From: Arcobacteraceae bacterium
GTDB taxonomy: Bacteria > Campylobacterota > Campylobacteria > Campylobacterales > Arcobacteraceae
Assembly (NCBI GenBank): GCA_963662945.1
Contig: OY759974.1
Coordinates: 2,433,316 to 2,497,315, forward strand
DNA: 64,000 nt
Reading direction: 5' to 3'
The notes beneath the pieces were generated by a model. It saw only the letters and a list, made by a program, of their open reading frames with translations. It searched no databases and had not been told where the DNA came from. This document shows positions 1-53,813 of this stretch, piece after piece. Position 1 is the first letter of the stretch. Every line of letters starts with the position of its first letter. Position numbers and translations under genes: made by a program.

Positions 1-988
1 TGAGCAAAATGAAGCATTAAATGCACTTTTAAATCCAGATTTTTCTAAAGTAAATTATCCAGATTTTAGTGATGTAGATTCTATGGCAACAAGAGATTCA
101 AATCACAAAATATTAAATGCAATTGCTGGTGCAGTTCCATCATTTTTAGGTGGAAGTGCAGATTTAGCACCATCAAATAAAACTGAGTTGATGGGACTTG
201 GTGATTTCCCAAGAGGAAGAAATATCCACTTTGGTATCAAAGAACACTCAATGGCAGCTATTACAAATGCTATGAATATTTATGGATTATTTAGAGTATT
301 TAGTGCAACATTCTTTATCTTTAGTGATTATTTAAAACCAGCTGCAAGAGTAGCTGCACTTTCAAGTATCCCACAACATTTTGTATGGACACATGATAGT
401 ATTGGAGTAGGGGAAGATGGTGCAACTCATCAACCTATCGAGCAACTAAGCCAATTTAGAGCATTACCAAACTTTTATACATTTAGACCTGCTGATGCTA
501 CTGAAAATATTGAGTGTTGGAAAACTGCATTTACACTAAATGCACCTACAGCTTTTGTATGTTCTAGACAAAAGTTAACTAACTTAAAAGGGCAAAAAGT
601 AGTTGGAGATGTTTCAAAAGGTGGATATCTTGTAACAAAACACGATAAAGCAGATGTAACATTTATGGCAAGTGGGAGTGAAGTATCACTTTGTCTTGAA
701 GCTGCTAAGTTATTAGAAAAAGCAGGAGTATATGCAAATGTTGTATCTGTTCCTTGTTTTGATTTACTTGTAGAGCAAGATATAGATTATATTGATGAAA
801 TCATTGATATGAACAATACTTTTGTAGTAGCTGTAGAAGCTGCAACTGCTATGGAATACTACAAATTTGCTGATGTGGTTATCGGTATGACTGGATTTGG
901 AGAGAGTGGACCTGCTGAGGAACTTTTTGAAAAATTTGGTTTCACACCAGAAAAAATCGCTGCTAGAGTTCAAGAGATAGTAGCGTAA
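1..988 (+). CDS. tkt: Transketolase, C-terminal part (5' end outside window)
   Basis: Frame open from window start; motifs GGSADLAPSN, HFGIKEH, THDSIGVGEDGATHQP, ASGSEV. Confidence 0.97.
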   Translation, partial: EQNEALNALLNPDFSKVNYPDFSDVDSMATRDSNHKILNAIAGAVPSFLGGSADLAPSNKTELMGLGDFPRGRNIHFGIKEHSMAAITNAMNIYGLFRVFSATFFIFSDYLKPAARVAALSSIPQHFVWTHDSIGVGEDGATHQPIEQLSQFRALPNFYTFRPADATENIECWKTAFTLNAPTAFVCSRQKLTNLKGQKVVGDVSKGGYLVTKHDKADVTFMASGSEVSLCLEAAKLLEKAGVYANVVSVPCFDLLVEQDIDYIDEIIDMNNTFVVAVEAATAMEYYKFADVVIGMTGFGESGPAEELFEKFGFTPEKIAARVQEIVA

Positions 989-1004
989 CTCTTAAAATGG
1001 CAGA

Positions 1005-1059
1005 TATCAATAATGCAGTTGTGATTGTCTCAATCGCTGCGTTATTGATAGGCTTTTTT
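1005..1059 (+). terminator. Long hairpin with U-tract after tkt, probably terminating between convergent genes
   Basis: TATCAATAATGCAG (1005-1018) pairs with CTGCGTTATTGATA (1037-1050); inner GATTG/CAATC; TTTTTT follows. Confidence 0.7.
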
Positions 1060-1089
1060 CTTTATATTATTTTTTAACTTATTAAAATA

Positions 1090-1623
1090 TCACTTTGGTC
1101 TAAATCCTATTAAATTATCATTTGTCTTTTGAGTATCTTGTAAGATTTGATGTAAGAGTTCAAAAGCTTCATCTATTCTATGAGTATTGTAGTTTTGATG
1201 TTGTTGGTCAATTTTAATCGTTTTTTCTATCTCTTCTATTCTCTGTGCTATATCTTTATAGTTTAAAGCAAATTCTCTCATTTTTGTAAATGTTCGCATG
1301 ATAGTAAGAGTCACTTCTGTAGCAACTTGACTTTTTAACACCGTTGCCAACATATACACTCCCTGTTCTGTAAAAACTTTAGGTAAATATTTTCTATCTT
1401 TTAAGCTTTCTTTAAAGGTCGCATTTTGCGACCTTAAGATATCTACTTCTTCCTTTGTCATCTCAAAAAATAAATCGCAAGGAAATCTTTCAGGATTTCT
1501 TTTAACAGCTTCATTTATCCTTTTTGTTTCTACATTGTATAAATTTGCTAAATCACTATCTAACATAATATTGAGATTACGAACTTTATATATCTTTGTT
1601 TCTATATTATTTACAATTTCCAT
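1090..1623 (-). CDS. ORF6N-domain DNA-binding protein
   Basis: MLDSDLANLYNVETKRINEAVKRNPERFP and PKVFTEQGVYMLATVLKS are typical ORF6N motifs; ends IGF. Confidence 0.9.
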   Translation of the reverse strand: MEIVNNIETKIYKVRNLNIMLDSDLANLYNVETKRINEAVKRNPERFPCDLFFEMTKEEVDILRSQNATFKESLKDRKYLPKVFTEQGVYMLATVLKSQVATEVTLTIMRTFTKMREFALNYKDIAQRIEEIEKTIKIDQQHQNYNTHRIDEAFELLHQILQDTQKTNDNLIGFRPK

Positions 1624-1710: not shown

Positions 1711-1944
1711 TTAGCAGAGTGTTTTTTGTCTGTTTATTTTTTCTTCTATAGTTTTAGTTGTATTATTAATATTGTCGTATAATGATTTTCTTTGGTCATG
1801 TGTAATATCTTCTGATAGTAAATATTCTAATATGTTTAATGTTGTTTCAACAAGTATATAATCCTCTTGAAGGTCTTTTTTATATTTTTCAATTCTTTGT
1901 ATTGATGATTTTATTTTATCTTTCAAAATCATTCTTTTTCTCAA
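1711..1944 (-). CDS. Small hypothetical helical protein (start may be ATG at 1932)
   Basis: ORF only; overlaps the 3' end of the upstream ORF as in an operon. Confidence 0.4.
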   Translation of the reverse strand: MRKRMILKDKIKSSIQRIEKYKKDLQEDYILVETTLNILEYLLSEDITHDQRKSLYDNINNTTKTIEEKINRQKTLC

Positions 1945-2143
1945 TTTCTTTTAAGTAGTATTCAAGTACAAAAATTACATTATCATTTTTTTCTAACCAT
2001 TTATGTATCTCTTTATTTGAAGCATTTGTATTTAGTAAAATATTTATCTTTTTTAATAATATTTTAGTGAATAGATATTTTTCTTGGATTGTTTCATAAT
2101 TTTTATCTATTCTTTGTTTTAGGTTTATTATTGTTTGTTGCAA
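1916..2143 (-). CDS. Small hypothetical protein
   Basis: TTG start preceded by AAAGG RBS; divergent from the XRE gene. Confidence 0.45.
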   Translation of the reverse strand: MQQTIINLKQRIDKNYETIQEKYLFTKILLKKINILLNTNASNKEIHKWLEKNDNVIFVLEYYLKEIEKKNDFER

Positions 2144-2170
2144 ATTTTAGCCTTTGAAAAATATTTCAAA

Positions 2171-2244
2171 TTTATCCTATAGGATAAAGATTTTTTAATT
2201 ATATAACTATAAAGTTTAATTTTAAATTAACTCTATAGGATAAA
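2171..2244. promoter_or_regulatory. Putative operator pair in a divergent promoter
   Basis: Perfect 18-bp palindrome TTTATCCTATAGGATAAA (2171-2188); CTATAGGATAAA repeated at 2233-2244 over the XRE gene RBS. Confidence 0.65.
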
Positions 2245-2248
2245 TAAG

Positions 2249-2500
2249 ATGGAAACCGATTTTAGTAACTCAACAAAAGAAGAAATAAAAAAGTTTTATG
2301 AAAATATTTCAAAAAAAGTAAAGTTTTTTCGAGAAAGTAAAAATATAACTCAATTGGATTTAGCTTTGGATATAGGGATAAAGTCTGTAGCCTTTTATTC
2401 AAATTGTGAAAATAATAAATATGATAAACATTTTAATTTAGAACACTTGTATAAAATTGCCAAGTCTTTGAAGGTAGATATTAATGAGTTTTTTAATTAA
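2249..2500 (+). CDS. XRE/Cro-C1 family helix-turn-helix regulator
   Basis: VKFFRESKNITQLDLALDIG...YSNCEN...NLEHLYKIAKSLKVDINEFF HTH_3 pattern. Confidence 0.88.
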   Translation: METDFSNSTKEEIKKFYENISKKVKFFRESKNITQLDLALDIGIKSVAFYSNCENNKYDKHFNLEHLYKIAKSLKVDINEFFN

Positions 2501-2520: not shown

Positions 2521-2655
2521 GTATAACGTCTGAACTGAAGGACGATGACCCCATCAATATGTTTGCTGGCTTCTTTTTTAACTAATACATAAAAGCTAAT
2601 TTAGGCTTAAATATTTGCAGGGGTCACGCGTTCTTTTTCCTGTATTTTGTTATAT
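2521..2655 (-). repeat. attC-like site of cassette 4 (135 bp)
   Basis: + strand GTATAAC (2521-2527)...GTTATAT (2649-2655); internal arms TGACCCC/GGGGTCA. Confidence 0.75.
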
Positions 2656-2677
2656 CTTATATAGTTTATGCTAATTA

Positions 2678-3034
2678 TTACAGTCTATCTGCATAACAAG
2701 TCCCATTGTCTTTTTTACCCCATTTATTCTCAATATAAATATATTCTCTATCCTCAGGTTCATAGTGATGAAATTTATAAGTGTAACTATCATTTTTATA
2801 TATAATGATTTCAGTTTTGAAATCATCATATTCTGATAATTTCTTTGAAAATGAATCAACTTTCCAAACGGTATATTTATTGTTAACAAGAATTTTATTA
2901 CTATCTAAATATCTACCAAATACTTTTATAGTGATATTGTCACCACTTTTCATTTTACATTCTAAATTATATATAAATGCCTTTGCATTTGTAAAAATTC
3001 CAAAGATTAATAATATGCTTAATAAGAACTTCAT
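2678..3034 (-). CDS. Cassette 4 ORF: secreted hypothetical protein
   Basis: Sec-type signal peptide MKFLLSILLIFGIFTNAKA; AAAAGGA RBS; two Cys near the termini. Confidence 0.75.
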   Translation of the reverse strand: MKFLLSILLIFGIFTNAKAFIYNLECKMKSGDNITIKVFGRYLDSNKILVNNKYTVWKVDSFSKKLSEYDDFKTEIIIYKNDSYTYKFHHYEPEDREYIYIENKWGKKDNGTCYADRL

Positions 3035-3074
3035 TTGAATATATCCTTTTATAAAGTAAATAGCTATTTTGTAG

Positions 3075-3207
3075 ATATAACGACCGAGTTGAAAAACAAG
3101 GTGTTATTTTTAATAAGATGTTCAAATCTTCATCTAAGTAATTTTACAAGATAAAGCTTAAATAATTGTAGTGTAACCTTGTTTTTCTTTCCAACGATTT
3201 GTTAGAT
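3075..3207 (-). repeat. attC-like site of cassette 3 (133 bp)
   Basis: ATATAAC (3075-3081)...GTTAGAT (3201-3207); perfect 12-bp arms GAAAAACAAGGT/ACCTTGTTTTTC. Confidence 0.85.
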
Positions 3208-3208
3208 T

Positions 3209-3691
3209 TTATAATATCTCAATATATGAATTATCTTTTTTTATTTCTTGTCTTAAATTTAGAATAAATTCAAGTTTTAATTTTCTGACATATTGTTTTA
3301 AATATTTTTTTGGCAAAAACTTAGTCCACATAGGTAAATCAAATTTATCATTTAAATAATATTTATCAAAATATATTTTAACAATTTTTAAATTTTTTCC
3401 TTTTGTGTTTGTTGGAATAAAACATCTCCATGGTTTTTGATTATATAATATATTATTTTTAAAAGGTGTTGATTCATTCATACTAATTTGTTGAACTTTT
3501 CCAGACCATTTAAATACAAGAACTACACCTTGATTTTGAAATTCCTGTCCGTAGTTATACCCTTGCTTTATAGAACAAAAACAATTTAAACAAGAATCAC
3601 CATTATAAATATTTCTTGAAAAAGGTATAAATTGTTTGCTTTTAATAATATTTAATGCAGAAGTTAAATTTGTAATATGATAAATATACAA
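3209..3691 (-). CDS. Cassette 3 ORF: hypothetical protein with ADP-ribosyltransferase-like N-terminal YHxT motif
   Basis: Start re-called to TTG at 3691 (AAAAGGA RBS 6 nt upstream; track start 3775 lies inside attC); MYIYHITNLTSALNIIKSKQF. Confidence 0.7.
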   Translation of the reverse strand: MYIYHITNLTSALNIIKSKQFIPFSRNIYNGDSCLNCFCSIKQGYNYGQEFQNQGVVLVFKWSGKVQQISMNESTPFKNNILYNQKPWRCFIPTNTKGKNLKIVKIYFDKYYLNDKFDLPMWTKFLPKKYLKQYVRKLKLEFILNLRQEIKKDNSYIEIL

Positions 3692-3732
3692 TGATAGTCC
3701 TTTTTTATTACATAGTAAAATTTGATTTATAA

Positions 3733-3802
3733 ATCTAACGTTTGACTTGAGAAATAGTTGTGCCCGCAGGGTCAACTATTTCTCTCCAAGGTTTTGTTAG
3801 AC
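3733..3802 (-). repeat. attC-like site of cassette 2 (70 bp)
   Basis: ATCTAAC (3733-3739)...GTTAGAC (3796-3802); arms GAGAAATAGTTG/CAACTATTTCTC; centre TGCCCGCAGGGT. Confidence 0.9.
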
Positions 3803-3813
3803 TTTTAATACAA

Positions 3814-4608
3814 CTATCCAATGTATAAATCATTCACCATTAATGGTACTTTGTGTAATTTATAATCAAGTTTTTTCATTAATTTTTCTTGCTCGTTTTG
3901 AATAAAAGGTTCTTGTCTTCTTTGAGTATCTTGTTTATATGTCCTAATTTCTTGTAGCATCTCTCGATTATGCTCTTCTTGTCCTCTTATCATTTCTCTT
4001 AATTGACGCTGATTATGTCTAATTTCATCTTGACCATTTAATAAATCAATGTGAGTTGGTTGCTCATTATGTATATGTATCTCTTGATTTATATTTATAA
4101 TTTGTCTATCTTGAGCAAAGATAGAATCTAATGATGTATTAAGTCCATATATGATAACTCCTTCTGCCAAAATAGCTAACACTTTTTTTCCATTCAAGTG
4201 ATACTTGTGTGGCGAATTTAATTCAATTTTTGTAAAGGACAATGCTTGTTCATCAACATAAATTGGTTCATACTTTCCATGACTATTCCCACACATAATA
4301 ATTGGTCTTTGGAGGCTGTGAAATTTTTTCCAAAATGATTTAGCATCTCTCTCTTTACTTTCAAGAAATACAAAATCATTATAGTTTTCAATAGTGTATT
4401 TTTCAGCTTCTTTTGGAACTGTTGAATATAAATCAAAAGAACGAGTAGCAATGATAAAATCTGAATCATGTGCACCATCTGCATATAGTTTTTCCATGCT
4501 TTCAAGCATAGATAATTTCATATAATATTCACCAAGGAAAGTAACTGTATGTCCCATCATCCAGTGAGGTTGAATTGTTGGTGATTGGAAAACTGTATTA
4601 ATATTCAT
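3814..4608 (-). CDS. Cassette 2 ORF: hypothetical protein with C-terminal coiled coil
   Basis: 264 aa; AAAAGGA RBS just inside the core site; Q/E/R-rich helical tail. Confidence 0.75.
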   Translation of the reverse strand: MNINTVFQSPTIQPHWMMGHTVTFLGEYYMKLSMLESMEKLYADGAHDSDFIIATRSFDLYSTVPKEAEKYTIENYNDFVFLESKERDAKSFWKKFHSLQRPIIMCGNSHGKYEPIYVDEQALSFTKIELNSPHKYHLNGKKVLAILAEGVIIYGLNTSLDSIFAQDRQIININQEIHIHNEQPTHIDLLNGQDEIRHNQRQLREMIRGQEEHNREMLQEIRTYKQDTQRRQEPFIQNEQEKLMKKLDYKLHKVPLMVNDLYIG

Positions 4609-4626
4609 TTATTATGTCCTTTTGTA

Positions 4627-4695
4627 GTCTAACGGTTGAAGTGAGCTAATAAATTGCCCGCAGGGTAATTTATTAGCTCCTCTGATTTGTTAGAC
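4627..4695 (-). repeat. attC-like site of cassette 1 (69 bp)
   Basis: GTCTAAC (4627-4633)...GTTAGAC (4689-4695); arms GAGCTAATAAATT/AATTTATTAGCTC; centre TGCCCGCAGGGT. Confidence 0.9.
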
Positions 4696-4733
4696 ATTAG
4701 TAAAATTTTTCTATATCTATAATTCATTAAGTT

Positions 4734-5657
4734 TTATAGAATTTTTTCTCTATTGATTTTTTCTTGATTTAAAGTAAAACCTTTGTTATTAAACACAGTT
4801 ATTTGTAAATAATCATTAGATTGGTCATCAATATAGTCTCTAAAATTAATAAAATTATTTTCTTCAATAATTTTAAAATCATTACTTATAATTTTTGAAC
4901 TATTATTAGACTCTAAAACTATAGATAAACTTTTAATTAAAAAATATGTAAGTGATTCAGTTATTTTAATTACTGTATTAACCATAGGGTATTCATATAC
5001 ATCAGAATCTATGAGTAGTATATTATCTTCTGTATCTTTAAAGCATGAAAAACAACATTGAATGTATGGTTCAACAGATGATAAGTGGGTAAGTATGTTT
5101 CTAAAGCTTTTTTTATTTCCTTTTTCAAGTAAATTAAATATATGTGATTTTAATTCATCTATTTCTTTTTGGAGTAATTTTATATTATCCTTTGAATGAT
5201 TTTTAACATATGATTCAAATAATTCAAAGTCTGATTGCTTTGGCTTTTTTAATTTTCTAGCAGGTTTTCCAAAATTTTTATAAACAAAGTTGAAAAAGAT
5301 ATCTAAAGTGGATTTAGAATGCATAATAAAAGATCCAAAATCAGATGCAATTGTTACTTCATTAAATAATAATAATTCATTGTTCTCTTTATCTTTTATT
5401 GTTGTTGTGTTATGAGATTGTTTTATTAAATTAATAGATTTTTGTCTGATTTGATAAGAATAATATAGGATAGTAAACATTTTTTCTTTAAATGAGTTAG
5501 TGTCTTGTAAGCTAGAACTATCTAATTCTTTATGTACTTCTTTGTACATATTTAATGCATTTTCATTAGCAAAACCTTCAAAATATGGATATAGTAAGCT
5601 TCTATTATAACTCGTATAGTTTTCACCATTTTTATTAAAATATAAATTCAAGTTCAT
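4734..5657 (-). CDS. Cassette 1 ORF: HEPN-like (RxxxxH) putative RNase
   Basis: Helical DFGSFIMHSKSTLDIFF segment followed by FRNILTH, resembling Cthe_2314-like HEPN domains. Confidence 0.65.
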   Translation of the reverse strand: MNLNLYFNKNGENYTSYNRSLLYPYFEGFANENALNMYKEVHKELDSSSLQDTNSFKEKMFTILYYSYQIRQKSINLIKQSHNTTTIKDKENNELLLFNEVTIASDFGSFIMHSKSTLDIFFNFVYKNFGKPARKLKKPKQSDFELFESYVKNHSKDNIKLLQKEIDELKSHIFNLLEKGNKKSFRNILTHLSSVEPYIQCCFSCFKDTEDNILLIDSDVYEYPMVNTVIKITESLTYFLIKSLSIVLESNNSSKIISNDFKIIEENNFINFRDYIDDQSNDYLQITVFNNKGFTLNQEKINREKIL

Positions 5658-5662
5658 CCTTT

Positions 5663-5691
5663 GTCTAACTCTTTATTGAAGATACATTATA
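5663..5691 (-). promoter_or_regulatory. attI-like core site (GTTAGAC) with candidate cassette promoter -10 box
   Basis: Minus strand reads TATAAT(5691-5686)-16 nt-GTTAGAC(5669-5663)-AAAGG-ATG; no attC-type stem upstream. Confidence 0.6.
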
Positions 5692-6095
5692 TATAAAACA
5701 CCCTGAAAATCAATAAATAACATACATAAAAAATGTTGTTTTATTTATTCGTTATAAAGCCTTTAAATAAAAGTCTTCTTACACATTTTACTGTAAAAAA
5801 CATTGCAATTTAAGATATTTTTTAAATAAATTTTAAGTTTTTGCTACAATTTTTATGTATGTTTAATGTCGATATTTCGATGATAATAGTACATAATGTA
5901 TGTATATTAAGACAATATCGTAATAAACCTGCATTATGTTAAATATATTGGGAGAGATATTATAAGTAAATAAAATCGAATGAACTGTAACCAAACTTTA
6001 CAAAAATATTCTCTTATAATCAATCTAAATCCTTATTAGCAACACTTTATCTCTCTATGCTATAATATCTCATAATTAACTATTAGGAGAGCAGA

Positions 6096-6608
6096 ATGAT
6101 GGGATTTACAAAATTTAAAGGTACAGATGTAACATTAGAGGGAACACAACTAGAAGTTGGGGATATGGCTCCTGTTGTTACTATAGTTGGGGCTGATTTA
6201 GAAGATATTGAAGTTGGTGGTTCAAATGACCAAATACAACTTATCATCTCAGTACCATCTCTTGATACAGCAACTTGTGCAGCTGAAACTCGAAGATTCA
6301 ATGAAGAGGTTGGGGCACTTGATATTTGTACAACAACTGTTATCTCTATGGATTTACCATTTGCAAGTGCAAAGTTCTGTACAACAGAAGGTATAGATAA
6401 CCTTGAAGTTGGAAGTGATTATGTTGATAAAGAGTTTGGAAAAGCTTATGGTGTATTGATGACTGACAATAAACTAAAAGGTTTACTTGCTAGAACAGTT
6501 TTTGTAGTAGATAGAAATGGTATCATAGTATATAAACAAATAGTTCCAGAAGTTACAGCTGAACCAGATTATGAAGAGGTTTTAGAAGCGATTAAAGGGG
6601 CAAGATAA
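6096..6608 (+). CDS. tpx: Thiol peroxidase (atypical 2-Cys peroxiredoxin)
   Basis: SVPSLDTATCAAETRRFN, ISMDLPFA..FC, GLLAR; extended -10 TGCTATAAT at 6058-6066. Confidence 0.95.
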   Translation: MMGFTKFKGTDVTLEGTQLEVGDMAPVVTIVGADLEDIEVGGSNDQIQLIISVPSLDTATCAAETRRFNEEVGALDICTTTVISMDLPFASAKFCTTEGIDNLEVGSDYVDKEFGKAYGVLMTDNKLKGLLARTVFVVDRNGIIVYKQIVPEVTAEPDYEEVLEAIKGAR

Positions 6609-6609
6609 G

Positions 6610-6999
6610 GTGTCTTATCAGTCTTGGCACCAAGAACACGCCCAAAAGCATAAAAAGCTTCTAGAGAAGCTAAAAGATTTAAGTGACAATGAGATTATAG
6701 AGTATTTTAGTTTTGAAAATATGGTTATCAAAGAACCAGATTTTTGCCCTTTATACAAAGAGAATAGAAAATGTCACAATATGGAAAATCTGAATTGCTA
6801 TTTTTGTGCTTGTCCAAACTTTAGAGTAGAGGAAAAACAAAGCACTTGTTCCATAAAAAGTAAAGATGGTGGAAGTATAAAGTCTCCTGATGGTTTTATC
6901 CATCAGGATTGCTCAAAGTGTACAGTTCCCCATAAAGTAGAATATGTCAAAAAACATTTTGATAGAGATTGGTTAAAAGTTATGAAGAATAACTTTTAA
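6610..6999 (+). CDS. Cysteine-rich small-domain (zinc-finger-like) protein
   Basis: FCPLY...CH...NCYFCACP...DCSKCTVPH. Confidence 0.8.
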   Translation: MSYQSWHQEHAQKHKKLLEKLKDLSDNEIIEYFSFENMVIKEPDFCPLYKENRKCHNMENLNCYFCACPNFRVEEKQSTCSIKSKDGGSIKSPDGFIHQDCSKCTVPHKVEYVKKHFDRDWLKVMKNNF

Positions 7000-10189: not shown

Positions 10190-12009
10190 GATATCACCAC
10201 CTTTACCCCATCTTGTGTATTATGTTGAAATTTTCCTTTAAGTTGTTTTGTTGCAAGTGTTTCAACAAGAATTAATCCTAAAGTATTAGCATTGTTTTGT
10301 TGTTCATATCCTATCCCATCATCACTAATTGAGAGTAGATAGTTTTCATTTTCTTTTTTAAGGCTAATATTTATGGTTCCATTTCCATCTACAAAAGCGT
10401 ATTTAAAAGCATTGGTAATAAGTTCATTGACAATAAGTCCACAATATACAGCTTGTTCTGCTTTTATATTAACATTTATGTCAAATTCTATTTTTATATC
10501 TTGTGTTTCAAAACTCTCTTTTAGTTCATCTACAAGTTTTTCAAAATAATCATAAGCATTGACATACGAGGGATTTTCTTGGTTATAAAGAAGTTCATGA
10601 AGTGAACTCATAGCACTAATTCGATTTTGAATAGTTTGAAACATACTTTTAATTTTCTTTTCTTCTATCTCTTGACTTTGAAGTCTTATAAGAGAGATGA
10701 TAGTTTGCATATTATTTTTTACTCTGTGATTGAGTTCTTTTAAAAGAAGATTTTTTTCATCGTAGGCTTTTTTTAAAGCTTTTGTTTTTTCTTTTACTTG
10801 ATATTCTAATCTTTGTTTTTCAAATTGTTGATTAAGAATTAGTTCCATATTTGCTTCATTTTTCTTTTGTTCTAGTTGATTTATCTTGTCTGCTAAAGCA
10901 ACAGAAAATACTAATGCTTCAAGGATTAAAGTGCTTTCTACAAAATATTTAAAATCATCAAAAATATAAAAAATACCTAGACTGGAAAAATACATACAAA
11001 AAGCAGCCATCGCAAATAAAAACCAACCAAACATTACAAAATAAGCTTGTCTATTTTTTTTGAGAGTTGCATAGATTGTGATACTTATTAAAAAAAGTAG
11101 TAATATCACTGAAAAGAAACTTCTATATTGGTTAAATCGATCTGTTATAAGAAATACAAAAGATAATATGATAAAAATTAATAAGTAAATGTTTAAAGTA
11201 TTATTCCATTTTGGATATTGTGAAAGTTTTAAAAATGACTTTACTAGAAGTGCCAACATAAATACAGGGAAAGCCACTAAAATACTTGCATATTTGACTA
11301 ATAATATAGTGATATCTTGATTAAAAATATAAATTGAACCAAAGCCAGTATAGACAAGTTGATGAACAATAATACCTATCATATAAAGAATATAGAATAG
11401 ATAGTTTTTATCATTTGTAATAAAGTATATAAAGAGATTGTAAATTGTGAGTATTAACATAGAAGCAAAAAACATAGCTAGTATCATATTGTGTTTTTCT
11501 ACTTGCTTTTCAAAACTATTTATATCCCAAAGATTTAGTTTCACTATCAGGGTTGTTATATAAGAAGATGCTTTTATATAGTATGTTTTTGTTTGATTTG
11601 GATTTAAAAAGATTTCAAAACTGGGGTTGAGACTTTCTCTTATATAATTTATTTGAAAAAGTCCATCTTCTAAATGGTTTGTATCATAATATAATTCTAC
11701 ATTTGTAGTTAAAGGATTCCCATATTCTAATACTTTTTTTATAGGTTGATTTGACTGATTTGTGAGTGTAAATTTTACCCATAGAGTCAAATATGGAGAA
11801 TATCCAAAACTTAATGTTTCGCTATTGTTTTTTTGAAAACTTTTTGTTTTGATTTCTTCAAAAGAAAGCTTTTGTGTATTATCTATAAATATCTCACTCT
11901 GTGTCAAAATCTCTTGGTTTGAAGTAGTTTGAGTGATAGAAATTGTTTCATTTGAAAACATAAAACTAAATAAAGATAATAGTAAAAAAAGTGATTGCAT
12001 AAAATTCAT
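10180..12009 (-). CDS. 7TM-DISM sensor histidine kinase (HisKA_2 type)
   Basis: DISMED2-like periplasmic domain (LSFGYS..TLWVKF), seven hydrophobic helices, ELNHRVKNNMQ H-box, NELITNAFKYAF, DDGIG. Confidence 0.93.
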   Translation of the reverse strand: MNFMQSLFLLLSLFSFMFSNETISITQTTSNQEILTQSEIFIDNTQKLSFEEIKTKSFQKNNSETLSFGYSPYLTLWVKFTLTNQSNQPIKKVLEYGNPLTTNVELYYDTNHLEDGLFQINYIRESLNPSFEIFLNPNQTKTYYIKASSYITTLIVKLNLWDINSFEKQVEKHNMILAMFFASMLILTIYNLFIYFITNDKNYLFYILYMIGIIVHQLVYTGFGSIYIFNQDITILLVKYASILVAFPVFMLALLVKSFLKLSQYPKWNNTLNIYLLIFIILSFVFLITDRFNQYRSFFSVILLLFLISITIYATLKKNRQAYFVMFGWFLFAMAAFCMYFSSLGIFYIFDDFKYFVESTLILEALVFSVALADKINQLEQKKNEANMELILNQQFEKQRLEYQVKEKTKALKKAYDEKNLLLKELNHRVKNNMQTIISLIRLQSQEIEEKKIKSMFQTIQNRISAMSSLHELLYNQENPSYVNAYDYFEKLVDELKESFETQDIKIEFDINVNIKAEQAVYCGLIVNELITNAFKYAFVDGNGTINISLKKENENYLLSISDDGIGYEQQNNANTLGLILVETLATKQLKGKFQHNTQDGVKVVISWN

Positions 12010-51680: not shown

Positions 51681-53813
51681 ATGGAAAAAAGAAAAATTAT
51701 TTTAACTATTATATTTGCAGTTATTATTGTGATTCTCTATACTATGATGAGTCATGGAAGTAAAAGAAAAATTGAAGAGTTTAAATTATCTAAAATAAAA
51801 CAATATGAATTGATTTATGAGTCTATATATAATAAATATGAGCAAAGAGCAGAAATAATTTTAGATACAGTAGTAGATGATAAAAAAGTTTTAGAGTTGT
51901 TTTCCAAGCGAGATAGAGAGGGACTATATTTATACTTAAAAAATAAATGTGAAATTTTTAGCAAATATAATCTAAATCAATTTCATTTTCACTTACCTAA
52001 TAATGATAGTTTTTTAAGATTTGATAGACTTAATTTATATGGAGATAGTCTAAGTGGTATTAGAGAAACAGTATCTTATGTAAATAAAAATAAAGTAGCA
52101 ATAGATGGATTTGAAGAGGGAAAAATTTTTAATGGATATAGATATATTTATCCATTATTTTATGATCAAGAACAAAAAAAATATCTAGGTAGTGTAGAAG
52201 TTTCCTTTTCTGCATATGGTATGATAAGTGAAATTATGCAGCTTTATGATGCAAAGGCAAACTTTATTATTTCAAAAGAGATAGTTGATAAAAAAGTATT
52301 AGAATCAGAAATGACAAATTATATTGATTCTCCATATCCAGATTATTATTATTTGAAGGCTATAAAGGACAAATTAACTATTGAGTATAGTAGCATTGAT
52401 ACAAATTTGCCAAAAACTATTACTGATGAAGTTACTAAAAAGATAAAAGATAAAAAAACTTTTGCTATATACAATAATGATAAAGAGATGTTAGAGATAA
52501 TTATTCCAATACTCAATCCTATATCTACAGAGGCAGTAGCAGCAATAATTATAGAAGTAGAATCAGAGTTTATTCAAAATAAAAAAGTAAATTTTTTTAT
52601 AATCTTTTTTATTATAGTACTATTATTAAGTATAATCTACTATATAATTTTTAGACTTTTTACACTCAATAGCAAACTTTCAGACAATCAACAAAAACTC
52701 TATTCTATTATAAATGAAGCAAATAGTGGTATCGCTACATTAGATAAAGAGGGAAATTTTTTAGAAGTAAATTATATGTATACTAAACTTTTAGGATACA
52801 CAAGAGAAGAATTTAAAACTTTAAATTGTATAGAGTTAAGTACTGCTAAATATGAAAAATCATCAAGACTAATATTAAGAGAAGTTCTAGAAACTGGAAA
52901 AGTGATAAATATAAGAAAAGAGTGTATATCCAAAGATGGTACTATTATACATATGGAACTTTCGTTCAATAGATTACCAGATCGTAAATCTTTTGTAGTT
53001 GTAGCAAATTCACTTGATGAAAAATTAAAATTAGAAGCAGCACATAAAGAATTAAAATTATTAAATGAAAACTTATATGAAAAAGTGAAAGAACAAGTAG
53101 CTAAATTAAGATTACAAGATAAAATGCTGTTCCAACAATCAAAATTAGCTGCTATGGGAGAGATGATGGATGCAGTTGCTCATCAATGGAAACAGCCATT
53201 AGGGGTGATTCAATTAAAGGCAAATGAGATTGAAATGATGGTTAGTTTTAATGAGCTAACAAATGAATATGGATTGGATGTATCAGAAAAAATACAAAGA
53301 CAAGTGAATCATCTTATTGAAACAATTGATGAGTTCCGAAGTTTTTTTAGACCTAAAATGAATTTAGAAGAGATAACCATAAAAAAACTTATAGATTCAA
53401 CCTTGTTATTAATGAAAGATGAACTTGTTAAAAATACGATACAAACTACATTTATTGGTGATGAAACTTTAACAGTTAATCTTATCCCAAATGAGTTTAA
53501 ACATGTACTTCTTAATATAATCAGTAATACAAAATATGAATTTGAGAGACAAAATAAAAAAGATGCAAAGATAGAGTTTATGGTGGAAACATTCAATGAT
53601 ACAATACAATTAAAAATTCAAGATAATGCAGGAGGTGTTCCTGAAGACTTAATCTCTACTATTTTTAATGTAAATGTCACTACTAAACCTGAGGGAAAAG
53701 GTACTGGGATAGGGCTTTATATGTCTAAAAATATTATAGAAAAAATTCATGGAACAATTAGCGTTAAAAATAATGATAAAGGTGCATTGTTTATCATATC
53801 TATACCAAAATAG
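51681..53813 (+). CDS. Sensor histidine kinase (Cache periplasmic domain, PAS)
   Basis: 2 TM; FHFHLP..SFLR, GFEEGK; PAS; AHQWKQP, DNAGG, GTGIGL. Confidence 0.95.
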   Translation: MEKRKIILTIIFAVIIVILYTMMSHGSKRKIEEFKLSKIKQYELIYESIYNKYEQRAEIILDTVVDDKKVLELFSKRDREGLYLYLKNKCEIFSKYNLNQFHFHLPNNDSFLRFDRLNLYGDSLSGIRETVSYVNKNKVAIDGFEEGKIFNGYRYIYPLFYDQEQKKYLGSVEVSFSAYGMISEIMQLYDAKANFIISKEIVDKKVLESEMTNYIDSPYPDYYYLKAIKDKLTIEYSSIDTNLPKTITDEVTKKIKDKKTFAIYNNDKEMLEIIIPILNPISTEAVAAIIIEVESEFIQNKKVNFFIIFFIIVLLLSIIYYIIFRLFTLNSKLSDNQQKLYSIINEANSGIATLDKEGNFLEVNYMYTKLLGYTREEFKTLNCIELSTAKYEKSSRLILREVLETGKVINIRKECISKDGTIIHMELSFNRLPDRKSFVVVANSLDEKLKLEAAHKELKLLNENLYEKVKEQVAKLRLQDKMLFQQSKLAAMGEMMDAVAHQWKQPLGVIQLKANEIEMMVSFNELTNEYGLDVSEKIQRQVNHLIETIDEFRSFFRPKMNLEEITIKKLIDSTLLLMKDELVKNTIQTTFIGDETLTVNLIPNEFKHVLLNIISNTKYEFERQNKKDAKIEFMVETFNDTIQLKIQDNAGGVPEDLISTIFNVNVTTKPEGKGTGIGLYMSKNIIEKIHGTISVKNNDKGALFIISIPK

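Follow-up and report, generated by a model that had tools for sequence, protein, structure and literature searches.

How an integron-type cassette array comes to stand in a chromosome without an integrase gene beside it, and whether such an array is a relic or a working part of a larger system, are the questions raised by a locus of an Arcobacteraceae bacterium (GenBank assembly GCA_963662945.1, contig OY759974.1). The locus lies between tkt and tpx, the genes of a transketolase and of a thiol-peroxidase-type protein, in a stretch of 64,000 nucleotides (positions 2,433,316 to 2,497,315 of the forward strand), which is called the window here. Positions without a prefix are those of the window, and the prefix C1 marks positions elsewhere in the same genome (G000). 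Window 2521-5975 is best read as an integron platform that lacks intI, the gene of the integron integrase: an attI site is followed by four co-oriented minus-strand cassettes, on which the IntI encoded elsewhere in the genome most likely works in trans. A probability of about 80% is assigned to this reading. The anatomy of the array, the homologies of its sites, the single intI of the genome and the differing cassette sets at orthologous intI-less platforms are observed; that IntI catalysed the turnover of the cassettes, and still does so, is what we infer, along with the promoter role of a TTGATT/TATAAT element in attI.

Anatomy of the array and its attC sites

The array consists of the following cassettes, each made up of an open reading frame (ORF) and an attC site. 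Cassette 1 adjoins attI and is therefore the best placed for expression.

4633..5668, minus strand: cassette 1, with ORF 4734-5657 (307 amino acids) and attC1 at 4627-4695 (69 nucleotides)
3739..4632, minus strand: cassette 2, with ORF 3814-4608 (264 amino acids) and attC2 at 3733-3802 (70 nucleotides)
3081..3738, minus strand: cassette 3, with ORF 3209-3697 (162 amino acids) and attC3 at 3075-3207 (long type, 133 nucleotides)
2527..3080, minus strand: cassette 4, with ORF 2678-3034 (118 amino acids) and attC4 at 2521-2655 (long type, 135 nucleotides)

An earlier note on this DNA had described four minus-strand ORFs, each followed by a palindrome, in an array like a CALIN (attC sites clustered without an integron integrase); all of its coordinates and cassette limits hold, and so does the classification. 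The palindromes are bounded by xxxTAAC...GTTAxxx, and the cassette limits match the G|TT crossover of the top-strand GTTRRRY box exactly. Between stop codon and palindrome there are gaps of 38, 11, 1 and 22 nucleotides (ORFs 4734-5657, 3814-4608, 3209-3775 and 2678-3034). The third of these frames is the longest one of cassette 3 and reaches 3775, inside attC2; a TTG at 3697 behind AAGGA is the likelier start. With one attC behind each co-oriented and mostly promoterless ORF, and with a content that varies among relatives, the region has the build of a cassette array. It holds four attC sites and its nearest intI lies ~610 kb away, where a CALIN, as defined for IntegronFinder, has at least two attC sites and no intI within a default distance of 4 kb (PMC4889954; PMC9024848). 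It is not a complete integron, as only ~12 nucleotides of the 5' end of a local intI are left. Nor can it be classed as a sedentary chromosomal integron, which by the criteria of Cury et al. (2016, PMC4889954) has over 19 attC sites or else is shared by every genome of a species, as it has four sites and the species sample consists of three identical assemblies. No resistance or virulence genes were seen in the array. The window is also free of tyrosine recombinases, as had been stated before: the 7 PF00589 and 9 TIGR02249 matches of the genome all lie outside it, and a tblastn search of the window with the IntI of the genome gave a best E value of 9 and no intI.

On the top (minus) strand, the boxes of the palindromes read GTCTAAC...GTTAGAC, GTCTAAC...GTTAGAT, ATCTAAC...GTTATAT and ATATAAC...GTTATAC, in agreement with attC core sites; two R' boxes and one R'' box carry T or A where the strict consensus (RYYYAAC...GTTRRRY) wants R or Y. 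Folded as single-stranded DNA, attC1 gave z scores of -6.4 to -7.1 and attC2 of -4.7 to -5.1, with none of 200 shuffled sequences folding as well, and for both sites R-box and inner stems with an unpaired spacer are predicted. Homology carries more weight than folding here, with related sites both beside intI and elsewhere. The attC4 site is 81% identical over 134 nucleotides (E 2e-27) to C1:547491-547624, the first attC beside the intI of the genome, and attC2 is 90% identical over 69 nucleotides (E 2e-16) to C1:548551-548617, the second one. Two further sites elsewhere in the genome are 86-88% identical to attC1, and homologues of attC3 occur in relatives at 76-90% identity.

The sites were also searched for with covariance models. 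The first model, R1, was built from five short sites of the genome itself, two of them window sites, and was applied to 29 loci centred on intI in other Campylobacterota, where it gave 21 matches at 20 sites; 20 of these matches fall on the opposite strand to intI, and the 21st reads one of the same sites in reverse. The second model, R2, was built solely from these 21 matches beside intI in other genomes. When the whole window was searched with R2 with the filters off, the top four sites were the four palindromes, all on the minus strand, with 90.6 (attC1), 75.4 (attC2), 29.9 (attC4, E 9e-4) and 28.4 bits (attC3, E 0.002). The sole other row among them is the plus-strand reading of attC1, which scored 46.8 bits versus 90.6 on the minus strand. 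An attC model search, proposed earlier as a check, thus recovers the same four sites with these stand-in models, strand preference included. The next R2 site, at 53290-53354 (23.7 bits), lies inside an ORF of 710 amino acids and was judged to be due to chance. First scans for attC by regular expression and by folding were too strict or too noisy, and a half-site weight-matrix scan gave 13 matches versus 7 in a reversed-genome control, of which solely those inside arrays were kept.

Because of the R2 ranking, the 81-90% identity to attC sites beside intI and the folding of the short sites, the four palindromes are identified, on sequence grounds, as attC sites. One of them was also detected as a terminator-like hairpin, which would suit the view that the palindromes are terminators or repetitive extragenic palindrome (REP)-like repeats behind four ORFs and that the locus is no integron. 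This view is scarcely credible, since cassettes beside intI are flanked by the same site family, with its orientation fixed, both in this genome and across Campylobacterota. Moreover, the genome-wide R1 matches (E<=0.01) and eight clear strict-motif sites all lie in arrays headed by an attI core.

The attI platform and the integrase of the genome

The head of the array comprises the following elements.

5666..5691, minus strand: attI core TATAATGTATcTTCAATAAAgAGTTA, which stops at the G|TT crossover (with its G at 5669) and has zero mismatches to the pattern
5669..5975, minus strand: orphan attI platform, i.e., the former intI-attI intergenic region and ~12 nucleotides of the intI 5' end
5686..5713, minus strand: candidate cassette promoter (Pc) in attI, TTGATT, 16 nucleotides, TATAAT, directed at the cassettes

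The core GTCTAAC at 5663-5669, which the earlier note had taken to stand alone, is not isolated. It marks where a full attI site ends, and this site includes a conserved promoter-like element. The minus strand of window 5666-5961 aligns with the entire region between intI and attI in the integron of the genome itself, and in blastn searches the platform matched C1:3447-3741 (86% identity), C1:1876333-1876612 (76%), C1:1981777-1981936 (80%) and C1:1431227-1431328 (81%). It is likewise 81% identical to the region that abuts intI in a related genome, G008. In G008 and G037, which hold the closest intI-linked copies among the relatives, the same 300 nucleotides span the distance from the cassette junction to the intI start codon, and the window retains the ribosome-binding site of intI and about four degenerate codons (~12 nucleotides) before it diverges. 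Among 16 aligned copies, the mean pairwise identity amounts to 93% in the 30 nucleotides before the crossover, 85% in the next 30 and ~70% as far as -290, and it falls to 40% right after GTTA; the homology stops at G|TT, as in an attI site. The core is located 240-292 bp upstream of intI, and divergent from it, in G000, G008, G013 and G037, and it adjoins the intI pseudogenes of G009 and G017. IntI-binding repeats could not be assigned by eye in attI. By these alignments, the local intI was deleted, with the complete intI-attI intergenic region left behind. An ATTTAAC motif (RYYYAAC-like) close to where intI once started was examined as a possible second recombination site bounding the platform and rejected, as most orphan copies extend beyond it.

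The TTGATT/TATAAT element, with 10 of 12 consensus matches in A+T-rich DNA, is a candidate for the cassette promoter; the argument for it is the conservation of the hexamers across the aligned attI copies and not the promoter scan. Two conserved palindromes, of the TACATTATGTA and TCGAAATATCGA types, are present in window 5850-5945 and in all attI units, in what was the intI promoter region, and they are possible operators for a regulator of intI or of the cassette promoter.

The search of the genome for IntI, which the earlier note had called for, yielded one intact intI on the same chromosome, with attI and attC sites homologous to those of the window. The gene is located at C1:545688-546632 and its product reaches 403 bits with TIGR02249, versus a cut-off of 265, which none of 14 control genomes exceeded. 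It aligns end to end with the structure of Vibrio cholerae IntI4 (2A3V, E 4e-83), and the alignment spans the segment absent from other tyrosine recombinases as well as the HxxR and Y motifs. By all these features IntI is intact and has the characters of an integron integrase. The 26-nucleotide attI core occurs in six exact-pattern copies in the genome and in none in a reversed control. One copy adjoins intI and is followed by three cassettes of the same attC type. The other five, without intI, head small arrays.

Window (tkt-tpx): orphan platform with 4 cassettes
C1:3447: orphan platform with about 3 cassettes
C1:1981777: orphan platform with 1 cassette
C1:1876571: orphan platform with about 2 cassettes
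C1:1431272: orphan platform with 1 ORF, no attC found

The window array is therefore no isolated case; the genome has five attI platforms without intI, and this is one of them. Two origins had been offered for it by the earlier note, an integrase acting in trans or one since deleted. The deletion is borne out by the 5' trace of intI that remains, and an intact intI whose product could act in trans is present elsewhere. As a separate observation, the third cassette beside intI (C1:549149-549499; 11150-11500 of locus L009) ends in what seems to be only the 5' half of an attC, and CACCTCTCCTGAGGTG and CCACCTCAGGAGAGGTGG, which are inverted repeats, occur in the following ~330 nucleotides together with a second TCTAACAAAAC. 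The attC may have received an insertion, or the site may be a very long one.

In the proposed mechanism, all six attI sites would be served in trans by the single IntI. Recombination of attC x attC would release cassettes as circles, and recombination of attI x attC would place these at any attI, so that each orphan platform would provide an extra 'first position' in which a cassette is transcribed. The recombinogenic bottom strand of the window's attC sites would be the plus strand of the window. The GC-skew minimum at 1.27 Mb and dnaA at 1.34 Mb place the replication origin there, with the terminus near 0.09 Mb, which puts the attC bottom strands of the window on the lagging-strand template, where they are found in 4 of the 6 arrays of the genome. 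This orientation is linked by Loot et al. (2017, PMC5371416) to easier folding, more excision and small arrays.

Orthologous platforms and cassette turnover

The genes tkt and tpx are adjacent in 9 genomes of the same genus, which, like the rarity of the cassette 2 protein in the family, marks the array as accessory. In G001, the empty site consists of tkt, a conserved ORF of 26 amino acids, 12 nucleotides and tpx; this layout delimits the insert of the window to 1078 to ~6080 (~5 kb), and the homology to insert-free relatives stops at the stop codon of the small ORF (1077). In the sister species G013, the flanks are 85-86% identical to those of the window, and the insert begins and ends at the same points, shares the intI-less junction and likewise carries an ORF6N gene at its far end. 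Its array holds 5 attC sites and 5 ORFs, none of which is related to the four proteins of the window (tblastn, E<=1e-3). Unrelated genes are found between tkt and tpx in G006 and G009, without attC or attI there. The gene content of the locus therefore differs among relatives, whereas an identical content in distant ones, together with a lack of attC model hits, had been named in the earlier note as a point that would speak against cassettes.

The ends of the insert also bear on the possibility that cassettes were added singly by IntI at a secondary site (attG) and that there was never an integron at this locus, an origin which has been proposed for small CALINs (Loot et al., bioRxiv 10.1101/2022.09.11.507474). 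The far end of the insert does read G|TT on the cassette strand, at 1078/1077, the TT being supplied by the stop codon of the small ORF. However, no attC adjoins this G|TT, and secondary-site insertion would not bring in ~300 nucleotides of intI-attI homology with the ribosome-binding site and first codons of intI. This origin is regarded as very improbable. An IntI-type insertion of the whole segment through 1078/1077 was considered too; with no adjoining attC, and with T|TT at the empty site of G001, the match was left as a coincidence.

Two other platforms of the genome have orthologues in relatives. The PhoH-side platform is orthologous in G000, G013 and G006, and the dnaK-side platform in G000 and G006, and at both the cassettes differ. 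As the intI-less junction at tkt-tpx is shared, intI was lost there before the split of the G000 and G013 species and the cassettes changed later. Such turnover after the loss of intI is the main argument for an integrase acting in trans, and its alternative is homologous replacement. In that case the platform would be dead and its cassettes fixed, and the differences between species would have arisen by replacement, for example through transformation, with attI, ORF6N or other flanks as arms. The ORF6N gene and the attI unit do form conserved arms on both sides of several arrays. Nevertheless, identity is 93% in the attI core versus ~70% elsewhere in the unit, the attC sites are intact, with scores as high as for the sites next to intI, and an intact IntI with the same site types is present in the same cell. 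Moreover, three orthologous platforms changed their content after the loss of intI, with every cassette boundary at an attC. Fossil arrays altered by replacement are therefore considered unlikely, and an IntI acting in trans is preferred.

Several results count against this preference. The array is identical in three isolate assemblies (X1, X4, X5), so that no variation was seen within the species, as would be the case for a fossil. Varied platforms also occur where no intI was found (G006, G015, G011, G038 and genus g23). G006, whose assembly is 99% complete, has six attI cores with varied arrays and yielded no intI at E<=1e-30, and in genus g23 cores are present in 18 of 44 genomes and IntI in none of the 44. 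Platforms can thus persist without any IntI, and their turnover could be due to homologous recombination with foreign DNA. Outside the core, the platform of the window is 67-79% identical to the intI-linked copy of its own genome (C1:546697-546898). The whole-site folds of the long sites attC3 and attC4 are weak (z -0.6 to -2.3), and the training set of R2 was chosen by R1, so the model test is not fully independent. The promoter scan overall performed no better than chance, with 45 promoters found and 41 expected. As for the sequencing runs, no RNA run was listed among those that contain the array, all matches to the array were contigs, and X7 was a mixed, low-depth sample; apparent new junctions in the run contigs proved to be other arrays of the genome matching through shared attC and attI sequences, not excision products.

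The distribution of the two components was followed through the genus and the family. In the genus, IntI exceeded the cut-off in 12 of 28 genomes, in single full-length copies, with extra partial or broken matches in G007 and G017, and the attI core was found in 15 of the 28, in up to six copies each. Among 184 genomes of the family, the core gave 276 matches in 99 genomes of 17 genera, with 8 control matches and a maximum of 15 cores in one genome. IntI was found at E<=1e-30 in 58 of these genomes and over the cut-off in 44. Many of the family's cores adjoin intI 5' fragments of 105-210 codons, and the aligned orphan copies retain from ~95 nucleotides of intI to none, which looks like a progressive loss of intI with retention of attI. 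In G064, which has multiple intI copies, three truncated platforms (L131, L133, L134), each with attI and ~250 nucleotides of intI, break off at the same position, are 95-98% identical and lie near a ~210-bp repeat present in at least seven copies. They may have been duplicated as units, possibly together with a small repeat element; a mixture of strains in G064 is possible, as two contigs share 5.3 kb at 98.6% and the contamination of the assembly is 4%.

A broader scheme can be drawn from this pattern, in which the attI-promoter platform multiplies after the loss of intI and one IntI, or a transient IntI from outside, serves all platforms, with CALINs as working satellites. This distributed integron is put forward tentatively, with somewhat less than even confidence.

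Cassette contents, flanking genes and known systems

None of the four cassette proteins matched Pfam, NCBIfam, PADLOC or PHROGs, and no function can be assigned to them from their sequences. The protein of cassette 1 has one relative besides itself, at 40% identity, and that of cassette 2 has 4 relatives among 5.8 billion proteins and is present in 3 of 151 family genomes, its own included. Cassette 3 encodes a member of an unnamed family of ~160 residues (103 representatives at E<=0.001) with near-invariant His7, Thr9, Asp34, Asn38, Trp64, Gly66 and Trp90-Arg91. The protein atlas pointed weakly from it to ADP-ribosyltransferases (scores 0.90-0.91), and Tox-ART-HYD1 was touched by 1 of 40 members at E 0.089, while a 40-member profile found no relative in the PDB (best E 0.31); the link to ADP-ribosyltransferases is only a weak lead. 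The protein of cassette 4 is small and has a signal-like N-terminal segment. AlphaFold models were unusable, with a mean predicted local distance difference test (pLDDT) of 38.6 for cassette 2 and 36.8 for cassette 3.

Some cassettes of the PhoH-side platforms are worth recording. The single cassette in G000 (C1:1981013-1981748, L011) has an ORF of 96 amino acids followed by a protein of 146 amino acids that resembles GNAT acetyltransferases by eye, a layout similar to that of GNAT-type toxin-antitoxin pairs. A relative of the 96-amino-acid protein is encoded in the fourth cassette of the orthologous array of G013. In G006, the first cassette (G006:C1; 268-2345 of L125) contains two ORFs, the second of which starts, by eye, like a C-5 cytosine DNA methyltransferase. 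It would be a restriction-modification pair in one cassette, in a genome in which no intI was found.

The genes and segments on both sides of the array are as follows.

2..988, plus strand: 3' half of tkt (Transket_pyr E 1.5e-44, Transketolase_C_1 E 4e-32), conserved in all relatives searched
997..1077, plus strand: small hydrophobic ORF of 26 amino acids, MADINNAVVIVSIAALLIGFFLYIIF, conserved in G001 and G013, no Pfam match
1090..1623, minus strand: ORF6N gene (PF10543 E 1.2e-31; PADLOC candidate defence family PDC-S05 E 1.5e-60)
1711..2500, both strands: three-gene module, with two small ORFs that overlap on the minus strand (1916-2143, 1711-1944) and, divergent from them, a helix-turn-helix (HTH) regulator at 2249-2500 (plus strand)
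5976..6095: platform-tpx spacer of ~120 nucleotides, common to G013 and absent from empty-site relatives
6096..6608, plus strand: tpx, thiol-peroxidase-type (Redoxin E 2.6e-22, AhpC-TSA E 6e-13)

The apparent terminator hairpin of tkt lies within the 26-amino-acid ORF. An ORF6N gene stands, co-oriented, at the far end of four attI-headed arrays: that of the window, G000 C1:1980649-1980972, L030 1366-1902 and L125 3089-3619. Besides the window, its holders are G013 at the same locus, the PhoH-side platform of G000 and G006:C1; in the PhoH-side copy of G000 the gene is truncated at domain position 27 by the last attC. The ORF6N gene of the window is possibly the oldest among the cassettes, or it may have resided at the locus before them, and ORF6N genes could be founder cassettes of orphan platforms or their preferred neighbours. 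In the three-gene module, the small ORFs encode 75-77 amino acids, the regulator matches HTH_3 (E 5e-8), and two palindromic operator repeats of the TATCCTATAGGATA type lie between the genes (D2, at 2163-2188 and 2219-2244). The module as a unit is 82% identical to G015:C1:1476477-1477244, with portions of it present in several more genomes. Between the last attC and ORF6N, where it lies, no attC of its own was found, with no R2 match in 900-2518, and it could be a toxin-antitoxin or small defence module. In the spacer before tpx no intI remnant was recognisable by tblastn with IntI, and CTATAAT and AGGAG are found upstream of tpx. Immediately downstream, window 6610-6999 (plus strand) encodes a cysteine-rich protein of 129 amino acids with a GTG start one base past the tpx stop; its zf-like Pfam match scores 26.6 bits, just below the cut-off of 27.

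Compared with CALINs as they have been described, the window array is ordinary in having at least two attC sites, no nearby intI, a small size and an IntI elsewhere in the genome; half of all CALINs lie in genomes that encode IntI, according to Cury et al. (2016, PMC4889954). Unlike typical CALINs, it keeps a complete attI, a promoter-like element and a trace of intI, and there are five such units in the genome. In the IntegronFinder accounts, attI sites have been poorly characterised and go undetected beyond class 1 (to 3), and no intI pseudogene is recognisable near 95% of CALINs (PMC4889954; PMC9024848). Single attC sites lacking integron-integrases (SALINs) and attG cassettes resemble the window array in lying away from the integrase on the same chromosome, as far as they are treated by Loot et al. 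(bioRxiv 10.1101/2022.09.11.507474), but they come without attI, and the window array has one. A limited literature search, which did not extend to the IntegronFinder supplementary tables (these may list Arcobacteraceae), found no description of an attI-keeping CALIN. The Arcobacter integron papers in the same search were of the resistome type, and none of the papers listed joined an integron integrase with Campylobacterota.

The sedentary chromosomal integrons of Vibrio (IntI4/VchIntIA, with Vibrio cholerae repeats, VCR) are similar in being chromosomal, in an integrase that aligns with IntI4, in cassettes that are mostly without assigned function, and in toxin-antitoxin-like and defence-like genes in or beside the arrays. 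[quoted passage not shown] This genome, in contrast, carries several intI-less platforms at different loci and an intact intI. What the two have in common is a chromosomal platform that outlives its integrase (bioRxiv 10.1101/2025.06.18.660453).

Summarizing, an origin of CALINs can be read directly in this genome: whole platforms that lost intI and kept attI and a promoter-like element. The intI-less junction shared by two species with wholly different cassettes amounts to a natural experiment for an integrase acting in trans. If the distributed integron is true, the expressed first position would be open to several cassettes at the same time. If the platforms are active, a single integrase would supply many sites of expression, which would alter the usual view of a lone attI with its promoter and a gradual silencing along the array, and the Arcobacteraceae, which include food- and water-borne relatives of Arcobacter, would offer a compact model with arrays of 1-5 cassettes and six defined attI sites.

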